Shown one piece after another: positions 12,581 to 49,519 of a stretch of 50,033 bases of DNA. Position numbers and translations under genes: made by a program. The notes under the pieces are model-generated. The model searched no databases, was not told where the DNA came from, and worked only from the letters and a program-made list of their open reading frames with translations. Positions within the stretch are counted from its first letter, which is position 1, and every line of letters starts with the position of its first letter. Location: assembly GCA_038326215.1 (NCBI GenBank), contig JBBQJU010000001.1, positions 1 through 50,033 on the forward strand, read 5' to 3'. This DNA is from Gemmatimonadales bacterium (GTDB lineage Bacteria; Gemmatimonadota; Gemmatimonadetes; Gemmatimonadales; GWC2-71-9).

Positions 12581-13999
12581 TCAGTCCTGGCCAAGCGCCC
12601 AGCGGGCAAGCCGTACCGGGAGGCCGCCGCCCTGCAGTGCTCGCCGGATGAAGGCGGCCGGATCGCCCCCCTGTTCGGCGTACCACGACTGCCATGCCTC
12701 GTGCGAGAGCGCGGCGGCCAGCGCCTCGAGGGGCTGCGACGCCACCTCCTGGACCACGAAGCGCGATTCGATCTCCGACAGCCCGGTGACCTCGCGCACG
12801 AACGCGGCGGCGGTCTCGCGGTCCATCCGCCGCGCCTGCAGGTGCAGATCGACCTCGGCCGCAGCGCTCTCGACCAGCGCACGATGGCACATCATCAACT
12901 GCTGCTCCTCGCTGCCGCCGACGATGGTGGTGCGGACCAGCGCCGAGACCGTGCGCCCCCACCCCATCGTGAGGCCGGGCGCGACCAGCACCCGGCGGAT
13001 GACGCTCGGCAACTCGCCGCGGGCCGCGTCCTGCATCAGCTCCGCATGCGCGCGAATCGCCTCGCCGCCGAGCGCATGGCGGTCGAAGCCATCGACAGGG
13101 TCCTCGGTGCACGGGGCGTCGGTCGCCGGAAGCCCGAGGGTGACCAGCTCCCCGCGGACCCGCTCCCAGGTCTCGGTCCACTCGGTCGGGAGTTCCTCGA
13201 AATCGATCTCGCCATGCTCCTGCAGTTCACGGACCAGAGCAAGCGGGTCGTCCGCGCCGAGCACCAACGCGACTGCATGCAGCGTCCGTTCGACGCCGGC
13301 GCGGCGCAGATCAAGAATGCGCAGGGTCCCGCGAATCCCGACCGGCTCGTGCGTGAGCATCGCGAGGCGGCGCTCAAGCGCTTCCTCGCCCAGACCAGGC
13401 TCACCACCGCGTGGTGCCTCGGACTCGAGCCAGCGGCGATGTTCGGCCAGCGCGACCAGCGCCGGCTGGACCGTCACATCATCGAGGTATTCGGACGCCT
13501 CGTCGAGCAGATCGCCGAGCTGACCGACGAGCGCGAGCGCATCGCTGGCCGTCTGGTCGGGGATGGGGCGCGGATCGGCCTGCACCCCGCCGAGGAATTC
13601 CGGCAACGCCCCAATGCGGCCGCGCAGGGCGGCCTCGGCTTCCGCGTCGAAACTCTCGTCCATGAACACGGCGAGCGCGTCGACCGCGTGACGCAGCGGC
13701 AGCGTCGGGTCGGCGGCCTCGGCCTGCGTCACCGCCTCGAGGGCGAGGATGTCGTCGCGAATGGTATCGAGCAAGGCGGTGCGATCGACTTCGTCGTCGA
13801 GCGCCTCGACATCCTCGAGGTCCTCGATCGCGTGGGCGATGCTGCGGAGTGCCGCGGCCTGTGCCACCAGCCACGGCGCATCGAAGCGGCCCAGGCGCTG
13901 CTGCGTCTCGGCGGGGGCGCCATCGGGATGCCGCATCGGGTCCAGGTGGCGCGCCAGATCGAGATAGGACGCCAGCAGTGCGGTCAGATCAGCGGTCAT
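12581..13999 (-). CDS. Acidic conserved hypothetical protein (weak DUF885-like resemblance)
   Basis: ORF 12581..13999(-), 472 aa, ATG start, ATGA overlap with the upstream stop (13996). Asp/Glu/Leu-rich helical protein. I could not find the HExxH-type motif expected of DUF885, so the family call is weak. Confidence 0.6.
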   Translation of the reverse strand: MTADLTALLASYLDLARHLDPMRHPDGAPAETQQRLGRFDAPWLVAQAAALRSIAHAIEDLEDVEALDDEVDRTALLDTIRDDILALEAVTQAEAADPTLPLRHAVDALAVFMDESFDAEAEAALRGRIGALPEFLGGVQADPRPIPDQTASDALALVGQLGDLLDEASEYLDDVTVQPALVALAEHRRWLESEAPRGGEPGLGEEALERRLAMLTHEPVGIRGTLRILDLRRAGVERTLHAVALVLGADDPLALVRELQEHGEIDFEELPTEWTETWERVRGELVTLGLPATDAPCTEDPVDGFDRHALGGEAIRAHAELMQDAARGELPSVIRRVLVAPGLTMGWGRTVSALVRTTIVGGSEEQQLMMCHRALVESAAAEVDLHLQARRMDRETAAAFVREVTGLSEIESRFVVQEVASQPLEALAAALSHEAWQSWYAEQGGDPAAFIRRALQGGGLPVRLARWALGQD

Positions 14000-36398: not shown

Positions 36399-37616
36399 AT
36401 GACCAAGGGCAGGGAAGCGATGAAGTGGACCCCGACCCGAGCGGCAGGGCTGGCACGGTTGCAGGCGTTTCTTCCTTCGGCGGGGTACGCGTACACGCGA
36501 GGTCGCAATGTCGACCGCGGCCCCGAGGATCGGTCGAACGTCTCGGCGCTGTCGCCCTGGATTCGTCGGCGGATGATCACCGAGCACGAGGTAGTTGCCG
36601 CCGTGCTCGCGCAGCATGGACTGGTCGCGGCCGAGAAGTTCATCCAGGAGGTGTACTGGCGGACGTACTGGAAGGGCTGGCTTGAGCTGCGGCCCGGCGT
36701 CTGGCGGCGCTTCGAGGACGATCACGCCGCCTTGTCGGCGTCGTGGCAGGGCAACCGGACGCTCGAGGCGGCGAGACGTGGCGAGACGGGGATCGAGGCG
36801 TTCGATCAATGGACCCACGAGTTGCTCGAGACCGGATGGATGCACAACCACGCACGGATGTGGTACGCATCGATCTGGATCTTCACCTTGCGCCTCCCCT
36901 GGCAGCTGGGGGCGGGCCTCTTCTACGACCACCTGCTCGACGCCGATCCGGCCGCGAACACGCTCTCCTGGCGGTGGGTGGCCGGGCTGCAGACGCGCGG
37001 CAAGCACTATCTCGCGCGCGCCGCCAACATCCGCGACAACACGCTGGGCCGGTTCAACCCCAGCGGCCAGGTGGACGAAGACGCCGACCCGATCGTTGAG
37101 GATGCGGCGCTTCCCGCTCCGACCCCGGCGCCGCGTGGGGAGACACCGAGCACCGGGCGTGTGGCCCTGCTCCTGACCGAGGAGGATCTGCATCCGGAGA
37201 GTTGGCCTATGGAGGCCGCCATCACGGACTGCGCGGCGCTGGCCATGCCGCCACACGGCGCCCCCGAGAGCCCCGCCGCAGCATTCAGCCGGGGTGCCCT
37301 CGCCGATGCGCTTGGGCGCACGAAGGATGCGTTCGGTCCTGAGGGATTACTTCTGTCGCCTGCAGAAATTGCGGACTGGGCCAGCCGCACCGGCGTGACC
37401 GAAGTCGTGACCGGCTTTGCCGCGGTGGGTCCGATCGCCTGCTGCCTCGATGAGGTGGAACACCGCCTGCAGGCGCAGGGCCAGCGGCTGGTCCGGCTGC
37501 AACGGACCTGGGACACCAACGCCTGGCCACACGCCACGGCGGGATTCTTCAAGGTGAAGGAGCAGATTCCCCGGCTGGTCATGGCGGCGATGGCGGCGGA
37601 GCAGCATCGGCGCTGA
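36399..37616 (+). CDS. Photolyase/cryptochrome FAD-binding-domain protein lacking the N-terminal alpha/beta domain, with ~190-aa C-terminal extension
   Basis: ORF 36288..37616(+). The start is ATG 36399 or 36420. NVSALSPWIRRRMIT, QEVYWRTYW, GWMHNHARMWYASIW and YDHLLDADPAANTLSWRWVAGL are photolyase FAD_binding_7 signatures, and they begin within ~15 residues of the N-terminus. Confidence 0.75.
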   Translation: MTKGREAMKWTPTRAAGLARLQAFLPSAGYAYTRGRNVDRGPEDRSNVSALSPWIRRRMITEHEVVAAVLAQHGLVAAEKFIQEVYWRTYWKGWLELRPGVWRRFEDDHAALSASWQGNRTLEAARRGETGIEAFDQWTHELLETGWMHNHARMWYASIWIFTLRLPWQLGAGLFYDHLLDADPAANTLSWRWVAGLQTRGKHYLARAANIRDNTLGRFNPSGQVDEDADPIVEDAALPAPTPAPRGETPSTGRVALLLTEEDLHPESWPMEAAITDCAALAMPPHGAPESPAAAFSRGALADALGRTKDAFGPEGLLLSPAEIADWASRTGVTEVVTGFAAVGPIACCLDEVEHRLQAQGQRLVRLQRTWDTNAWPHATAGFFKVKEQIPRLVMAAMAAEQHRR

Positions 37617-46999: not shown

Positions 47000-47482
47000 T
47001 CAGTGCGCCGTGTCGCCGTGCAGTTGACGCACGGCGTGATGAAGGATCGGCAGCAGCGCGGCGAGGCCGTCGCGCACGCCACCCGGGGACCCGGGAAGAT
47101 TGACGATCAGTGTCGCACCGCGTGCGCCAGCGACGCCACGCGAGAGGATCGACGTCGGTACCGCCGCCTGTCCTGCACGCCGCAACGCCTCGGCGATGCC
47201 CGGCGCCTCGCGATCGAGCACCGCGCGGGTGGCCTCGGGGGTCACATCACGCGGCGCGAGCCCGGTGCCCCCAGTGGTGAGGATCACATCCACGGCACCA
47301 CCATCGGACCAGGTCAGCAGTTGCGTCGAGATCTGATCGGCCTCGTCGGGCACCAGGGCGCGCGCGGCCAACGAGAGCTGATGCTCATCGATCCACTCGA
47401 CGACCACCGCGCCGGAGCGGTCCTCGCGTTCACCACGCGCTGCGGCATCGGAGATCGTCAACACGGCGACACGCATGCTCAC
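47000..47482 (-). CDS. mog: MogA/MoaB-family molybdopterin adenylyltransferase
   Basis: ORF 47000..47482(-). TISDAAARGEREDRSG, LTTGGTGLAPRDVTPEAT, DREAPGIAEALR, VPTSILSRGVAG and NLPGSPGG track E. coli MogA closely. The start is GTG 47482 or ATG 47476. Confidence 0.85.
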   Translation of the reverse strand: MSMRVAVLTISDAAARGEREDRSGAVVVEWIDEHQLSLAARALVPDEADQISTQLLTWSDGGAVDVILTTGGTGLAPRDVTPEATRAVLDREAPGIAEALRRAGQAAVPTSILSRGVAGARGATLIVNLPGSPGGVRDGLAALLPILHHAVRQLHGDTAH

Positions 47483-48480
47483 GCTTCGGGGGCCAGCGGT
47501 GGCGTGCTGCGCGACACGAACGGACGGCGCACCACGTCGGCGGTCCAGCTCTGGCCATCCGCCTCGATCACCAGCGAGGTGCCCACGGCCTCGGTCGACG
47601 TCGGCAGCGCGGTCATGCCGATGATCCCGACACGCGGTGACCGTGCGATCGAGCGGACGCGATCGACCAGATGTCCACCGACCCGCACCGCGGCGCCGAT
47701 CGGCGGCATTTCATCGCCGGCGACGGTGAAGCCGGCAATCCGCTTCATCGCACCGGTCCGGCGCCGCGCCGCGAGTGCGGTCTCGCCCGGAAAGGGGGCG
47801 CCCTTCCCCTCGGCAACGAGCGACTCGAGTCCCGCTTCCATCGGCGTATCCTCGGCGTCGATTTCCTGACCGACGCGCGCCGTGCCCCACTCGTCGCGGA
47901 AGAGCTGCCATGCCGCCTCCTCGACCGGCACGACGGCCGCGCCGAGCAGCGCCGACTCGAGCGACGCACGGTCGCGCTGGCGGCAGAAGAAGTCGAAGCC
48001 CTCGGGGCCGTCGAGCGTCGCGCGCGCCGCGAAGAGATCGACGCCGGCAAGGCGTGCGCCGACGACATCGCCGCCCTCGGTTGGCATCGGTTCCAGCAGG
48101 CGCGAGAGTCGCACGGCCGACGCGGGACCGCGCACGGTGATCACGCAGACATCATCCGAGATGTCGCGCATGCGGACGGTGCCACGCTTCCGGGCGACGA
48201 GATACTCCCAGGCGGCCTCCTTTTGCGCGGCATCGACCAGCAGCATCAACTGGTCGGGGAAGCGATAGATCGTCACGCGGCCGAGAATCGTGGCATCGTC
48301 GCGGAGCAGCAGCGCGTGCACGAAACGGCCCGGCGGGAGCTTGGTGATGTCGGCCGTGGTGAGACGGTTGACGAGGGCGTGGGCATCGGCGCCGGTCAGT
48401 TCGAACTGACCAAGGCCCGGGGCGGTCCACGAGGCGGCGCCTGCCGTGAGGGCGCGGTACTGCGTGAGGAGATCGGTCAT
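47479..48480 (-). CDS. GcvT-family (aminomethyltransferase-like) folate-binding protein
   Basis: ORF 47479..48606(-), start at ATG 48480 (MTDLLTQY...). FELTGADAHALVNRLTTADI, GPEGFDFFC and EAGLESLV...KGAPFPGE follow the GcvT/YgfZ pattern. ATGA overlap with the argF stop. Confidence 0.7.
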   Translation of the reverse strand: MTDLLTQYRALTAGAASWTAPGLGQFELTGADAHALVNRLTTADITKLPPGRFVHALLLRDDATILGRVTIYRFPDQLMLLVDAAQKEAAWEYLVARKRGTVRMRDISDDVCVITVRGPASAVRLSRLLEPMPTEGGDVVGARLAGVDLFAARATLDGPEGFDFFCRQRDRASLESALLGAAVVPVEEAAWQLFRDEWGTARVGQEIDAEDTPMEAGLESLVAEGKGAPFPGETALAARRRTGAMKRIAGFTVAGDEMPPIGAAVRVGGHLVDRVRSIARSPRVGIIGMTALPTSTEAVGTSLVIEADGQSWTADVVRRPFVSRSTPPLAPEA

Positions 48481-49376
48481 GGGAAGAGCATCGCGAGTAG
48501 GGCCTTCTGGGCGTGGAGTCGATTCTCGGCTTGATCCCAGACGCGCGACTGGGGCCCTTCGAGCACACCGTCGCTGATCTCCTCGCCGCGATGCGCGGGA
48601 AGGCAATGCAGGACAATGGCGGATGGATCGGCTTGGGCCACCAGTGCCTCATCGACGATGTAGCCCTTGAAGGCCTGCTTCCGCAGGGCCATCTCGGCTT
48701 CCTGCCCCATCGAGACCCAGACATCGGTGTTGATCACGTGGGCGCCCGCGACGGCTTCATCGGGGTCCTCGGTGATCATGATCTTCGTGCGGGTGCGGTT
48801 GGCGTCGTAGATCGCCTTGTCGGGCTCATAGCCCTCGGGGCAGGCGATCCGCAGCTCGAAGCCGAGGAGGCCGGCAGCCTCGATCCAGGAGTTGGCCATG
48901 TTGCAGCCATCGCCCACCCAGGCGACCACTTTGCCGTCGAGCGAGCCAATGGCCTCGTCGATGGTGAGCAGGTCGGCGAGGAGTTGTCAGGGGTGCAGCA
49001 GGTCGGTCAGGCCGTTGATGACGGGGACGGCCGACCAGGCGGCGAGCTCCTCGACGTCGGCATGGGCGAAGGTCCGGATCATCATCCCGTCGACGAAGCG
49101 GGAAAGGACGCGGGCCATGTCCTTCAGCGGCTCACCGCGGCCGAGCTGGATGTCGCGGGCGGAGAGGAAGATCGCGTGTCCGCCAAGCTGGCGGGTCCCG
49201 ACCTCGAAGGAGACGCGGGTGCGGGTCGAGCTCTTGGCGAAGATCAGGCCGATATGCTTGTCGGCGAGCGGCTTGTCGTGGTATTCCCCGCGCTTCATCG
49301 CGCGCGCGGTGTCGAGCAGGGTCCGGAGCTCGGCGCGGGTGATGTCGGCAAAGGAGAGGAAGTGACGAGGCGACAT
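48477..49376 (-). pseudogene. argF: Ornithine carbamoyltransferase interrupted by a single in-frame TGA (48987-48989)
   Basis: Track ORFs 48987..49376 (N-half: [23 protein letters not shown]) and 48477..48929 (C-half: VAWVGDGCNMANS, HCLPAHRGEE) are in the same frame. Direct reading across the gap gives ...[40 protein letters not shown]..., so the stop sits where the HPCQ Cys codon is expected. Confidence 0.8.
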
Positions 49377-49519
49377 GATCCACTCGTTCTGGGGAAAGCG
49401 GCCAGAATGGCAGAGTGGAGTCTACCCCCGGGGGTAGGGGTGGGGGAAGCGGTGGCGGTGTGAGCCGCGGCCGTCAGGCCAGGGGGAAATTCACTAACCC
49501 CTACCCTCGGGTATCGCGG

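Follow-up and report, generated by a model that had tools for sequence, protein, structure and literature searches.

A single in-frame TGA interrupts argF at the HPCQ cysteine codon in one metagenome-assembled Gemmatimonadales genome that carries an intact N-acetylornithine carbamoyltransferase gene

The ornithine carbamoyltransferase (OTCase) gene argF of a metagenome-assembled Gemmatimonadales genome contains one in-frame TGA at a conserved Cys codon and, as written, would count as a pseudogene or null allele within its family. The preferred reading, to which we give roughly one chance in two, is an unprogrammed single-base change from TGC to TGA that represents a real, very young nonsense allele of the sampled population, either fixed or polymorphic. 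Such a change would truncate OTCase after residue 129 and create a null allele. The lineage would make citrulline through N-acetylornithine carbamoyltransferase (argF') encoded in its main arginine cluster, with canonical OTCase as an accessory enzyme, and a null argF would be tolerated owing to argF'. Nonsense mutation, sequencing or assembly error, and UGA recoding had all been offered as explanations by a sequence-only reading of the same DNA, and only the first two are still live. Known kinds of events suffice to explain the TGA.

The window, a stretch of 50,033 nucleotides, is contig C1 of a 2.56-Mb genome (G000) in 320 contigs that is 72.8% complete, with 2.85% contamination and a G+C content of 67.7%; the names of homologous sequences put it in the Gemmatimonadota, order Gemmatimonadales. 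The argF frame (Table 1) contains a lone in-frame TGA in the context CTG CTG CAC CCC TGA CAA CTC (L-L-H-P-stop-Q-L, continuing L-A-D-L). As first described from the sequence, the two halves share one frame and the rest of the gene is intact. Read through the TGA, the translation scores 449.9 bits against NF001986 (cut-off 306) and 382.8 bits against the ornithine carbamoyltransferase model TIGR00658 (cut-off 280.85), passing the equivalog cut-off, and a PF02729 match covering 48954-49367 spans the stop. The catalytic motifs are present as S49TRTR, H128-P-(TGA)-Q131, D218VWVSMG and H257CLPAHRG, and the nearest solved structure, 7x99 (327 bits), likewise carries HPCQ. The gene does not offer the uninterrupted two-domain frame of ArgF, because codon 130 is TGA. 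Expression of the halves as separate polypeptides was considered and rejected, since a restart at GTG 48929 would lose residues 130-149, including the carbamoyl-phosphate-binding Gln131.

Table 1. Positions of argF, its parts and the genes downstream within the window
Feature	Position	Strand	Remarks
argF, canonical anabolic-type ornithine carbamoyltransferase	48477..49376	minus	ATG at 49376, terminal TGA at 48479..48477; 299 codons, one interruption; NF001986, TIGR00658
N-terminal fragment of 129 aa, sole product as written	48990..49376	minus	has most of the carbamoyl-phosphate domain; lacks Gln131 and the entire ornithine domain
In-frame TGA, codon 130, x of the carbamoyl-phosphate-binding HPxQ	48987..48989	minus	TGC or TGT in every relative
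Codon CAA (Gln131), next to the TGA	48984..48986	minus	private synonymous change from CAG
Untranslated remainder of argF, codons 131-299	48477..48986	minus	still perfectly conserved; first in-frame start is GTG at 48929
GCV_T folate-binding and GCV_T_C domain gene	47479..48480	minus	ATG overlaps the argF stop
MoaB/Mog-type molybdopterin-binding protein gene	47000..47482	minus	third in the string

The terminal stop of argF overlaps the downstream ATG (ATGA), so the arrangement for translational coupling that had been noticed earlier is real and intact. The same argF-GCV_T-MoCF_biosynth order is found in a relative (L031). Simple scans of the 143-nt argF leader (49377-49519) detected no sigma-70-like promoter and no terminator. 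Elsewhere in the window, ARAGORN called two over-long tRNAs on the minus strand, Arg-ccg (96 nt, 13067-13162) and Cys-gca (98 nt, 37440-37537), the latter inside long ORFs. Both are probably false positives, as Rfam gives no tRNA match at the gathering score for either.

The TGA is a singleton, private to one metagenome-assembled genome. In 40 related genomes, a six-frame search recovered 35 argF orthologues, none of which has an internal stop. The nearest orthologues (G014 and G009, 97% amino acid identity; G020, 94%; G005, 89%) have TGC CAG in place of the TGA CAA of the window, which bears out the suggested third-base change from TGC. The expectation that homologues carry HPCQ at this site was equally sound, as the motif occurs in all of the best 120 homologues from a collection of 5.8 billion proteins. 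The degenerate pattern T-D-x-x-H-P-TGA-Q-x-L-A-D-L had no match in 241 million metagenome records or among the genomes of 185,579 species (one genome each); the pattern gave one match in the window, and its TGY version matched 23 fetched loci. The nearest DNA to the argF of the window (L034) is just 94% identical and carries TGC. A search for an assembly of the same strain, using the exact flanks with any base at the site, gave no match in metagenome and genome contigs, from which records of the genome itself may be omitted. No protein record was found for the 129-aa N-terminal fragment.

The interrupted gene retains the signature of purifying selection. Compared with its nearest relatives (about 86 to 94% nucleotide identity), argF has a dN/dS of ~0.065 before as well as after the TGA, and the value for the C-terminal part, after the stop, lies between 0.04 and 0.07. 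The gene has eight private substitutions, every one at a third codon position; apart from the TGC-to-TGA change, the other seven are synonymous. Both the low dN/dS and the exclusively synonymous nature of the other private changes indicate that argF was under selection until very recently. An aged pseudogene would have accumulated nonsynonymous changes; the TGA is therefore either of very recent origin, or an artifact, or a translated codon. Neighboring codons hold two of the eight private changes, within 4 nt of each other, for which the probability by chance alone is ~0.2.

The assembly was searched for comparable defects. When the ORFs of two relatives (G014 and G009) were projected on the 50-kb window, argF alone among conserved genes had a stop in its interior, and the other flagged cases were upstream extensions or ORFs in shadow frames. 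A screen of the whole genome for stops with at least 70 coding-like codons on each side returned 38 candidates (13 TGA, 14 TAG and 11 TAA), with no excess of TGA. Most candidates other than argF have a start codon no more than 10 codons past the stop, as neighboring same-frame genes would, and the five without a nearby start look from their translations like gene junctions or shadow frames. The only convincing interrupted gene in this screen is argF. As neither the window nor the screen showed a further interrupted conserved gene, the assembly is not riddled with errors and does not appear to be generally faulty.

A second carbamoyltransferase gene is located on contig C147 (locus L002, 970-1986, minus strand), where an intact argF' of 338 aa lies between argD and argB. 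Its product scores 398.8 bits against NF003384 (cut-off 288), passing the family cut-off, and its best match among solved structures is the Xanthomonas AOTCase 3kzc (297 bits), compared with 158 bits for the SOTCase 2fg6 and 156 bits for an OTCase. The earlier suggestion to look for a second argF or argI thus led to an intact argF' in the arginine cluster; a second canonical OTCase was not found in G000. In a near-complete relative (G014, locus L035), the argF' cluster holds argG, argD, argB, an ArgE/DapE-type deacylase gene and argH. The main arginine route of the lineage therefore probably runs via N-acetylcitrulline, with canonical argF outside the arginine cluster. A nonsense mutation had been expected to imply either arginine auxotrophy or a second OTCase. 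With an intact argF' in the arginine cluster, truncation of argF need not cause auxotrophy, and argF' may make the loss of argF tolerable.

Both genes are retained in the genus and in most of the order, argF in the argF-GCV_T-MoaB string and argF' in a Xanthomonas-type arginine cluster, under strong purifying selection. In one relative represented by a fragmentary metagenome-assembled genome (G020, locus L036, G020:C36:1400-3300, minus strand), argF' ends early with ...AVIDHRC-stop and is shorter by about 20 residues at the C terminus, where the conserved QAENRLHAQ helix is lost; argB comes directly after it. Either a deletion or an assembly artifact accounts for the early end.

The position of the UGA at a conserved Cys codon called for a search for selenocysteine (Sec) machinery. 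None of selA, selB, selD and tRNA-Sec was found in G000 or in any of the five genomes nearest to it (G014, G009, G005, G020 and G024), which are 75 to 98% complete (94 to 98% for G014, G009, G005 and G024). The same searches placed all four genes above the curated cut-off in three members of the genus (G001, G008 and G018) and in one further member of the order (G026). The Sec trait has been lost from the subclade of G000. The trait is patchy within the genus, being present in G001, G008, G018 and G015 and absent from G000, G014, G009, G005, G020 and G024, and a SelD with an in-frame TGA occurs in many relatives of the order. The RNA around the argF stop has no SECIS-like structure: the folding energy of the 71-nt stretch around and after the UGA is -16.4 kcal/mol, compared with -17.1 +/- 2.7 kcal/mol for shuffled sequences (z = 0.25), and 113 of 200 shuffles equal or exceed it in stability. 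The hairpin downstream of the UGA had been judged weak from the sequence, and rightly so. No Rfam match to the RNA after the UGA was obtained at E <= 1.

Three explanations would make the UGA a translated codon. Programmed recoding to give a Sec-containing OTCase is favored by the alignment of the UGA with a conserved Cys and by the existence of the Sec trait within the genus, and the genome itself is just 72.8% complete, but the machinery is missing from G000, a finding that the sequence-only reading had itself named as evidence against recoding, and from its more complete closest relatives as well. The sequence downstream of the UGA is, moreover, the same as in TGC-bearing relatives, TGA occurs at the HPxQ site in no other genome or metagenome record, including the 35 orthologues, and the HPxQ Cys residue is not redox-active. 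A literature search on ornithine carbamoyltransferase, selenoprotein and UGA found no selenoprotein OTCase, and recoding to Sec is close to refuted. A reassigned genetic code in which TGA is a sense codon throughout the genome, such as code 4 or 25, has nothing in its favor beyond the single in-frame TGA itself and is refuted by stop codon usage: TGA ends 478 of 704 long coding frames (68%), argF included. The lack of a TGA excess among coding-flanked in-frame stops also stands against reassignment, no suppressor tRNA was found, and the high G+C content was counted against it. Low-level decoding of a real UGA by a near-cognate tRNA (Trp or Cys), which needs no dedicated machinery, would yield small amounts of full-length enzyme and preserve part of the coupling to the downstream genes. 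C follows the stop, and in E. coli UGA is the leakiest stop and UGA-C the weakest termination context. Across OTCases, Cys, Thr and Ile are all accepted as the x of HPxQ, and the sequence past the stop is still perfectly conserved. That conservation is, however, equally explained by a young stop, there is no stimulatory structure after the stop, the carbamoyl-phosphate pocket may not accommodate Trp, and Cys is found in all of the best 120 close homologues. Leaky decoding is accordingly improbable, and useful translation of a real UGA by any means, whether near-cognate read-through or an unrecognized recoding route, has only a slim chance. Were it to occur, OTCase would remain functional in the population, and the downstream genes would stay translationally coupled, in spite of the stop.

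The choice between a real base and an error in the consensus is closer. The organism may have TGC, with the A of the stop (T on the plus strand, 48987) arising as a miscall or as a minor-variant k-mer path fixed at low coverage. The fragmentary, incomplete bin (320 contigs, 72.8%) hints at low coverage, at which errors can enter a consensus. Apart from the stop, the gene has no flaw and is under strong purifying selection, its other seven private changes being synonymous; argF is intact in all relatives, and the operon and its ATGA coupling are intact. The privately changed adjacent codon, which places two of eight differences within 4 nt, could also mark a local miscall. The odds of an artifact are thus raised by the fragmentary bin and by the private changes in adjacent codons, and they are lowered by the lack of any other such defect in the window or the genome-wide screen. 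Consensus substitutions in short-read assemblies are rare, the neighboring change is a normal synonymous G-to-A substitution of a kind seen elsewhere in argF, and the intact argF' is a plausible reason for a real null allele to persist. A consensus error is on balance quite possible, at less than even odds. Two considerations speak against a real null allele. In every relative an intact and strongly conserved argF stands beside argF', which suggests that OTCase is not dispensable in general, and a premature stop would uncouple translation of the overlapping downstream gene. A real base, and with it a young nonsense allele, is nevertheless the likeliest reading, at about even odds.

The practical consequence for annotation is that argF should be described as interrupted by one stop (possible pseudogene or assembly error) and not as a selenoprotein gene; its importance beyond this is small. 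For metabolic reconstruction, a use that is modest, the presence of both OTCase and argF' in these Gemmatimonadales means that the loss of argF should not be taken to indicate arginine auxotrophy. The case also shows how a correspondence between Cys and UGA can be dismissed cleanly where the Sec trait is patchy in a genus and missing from exactly the subclade of the genome concerned.

Compared with known systems, the gene of the window is a full-length match to the ArgF family (TIGR00658/NF001986; solved structures 7x99, 3gd5 and 1a1s), has 97% identity to orthologues of the genus and keeps STRTR, HPxQ, DxxSMG and HCLP. It differs from the family in having TGA rather than TGC at codon 130, so that residues 1 to 129 alone are made as written. 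The paralogue on contig C147 matches the enzyme of the Xanthomonas argF' pathway (3kzc) over its full length, and its arginine cluster has the same gene types. Xanthomonas is not known to have a canonical OTCase, whereas OTCase and argF' are both kept in these Gemmatimonadales. The likeness to bacterial selenoproteins that have Cys homologues consists in a UGA aligned to the Cys of the homologues, whereas the subclade of this argF is without selA, selB, selC and selD, there is no SECIS, no relative shares the UGA, and the residue is not redox-active. Young nonsense pseudogenes and null alleles of bacterial populations are comparable in having a single stop, an otherwise intact gene, a history of low dN/dS and occurrence in one genome only, a picture that a consensus error would share.
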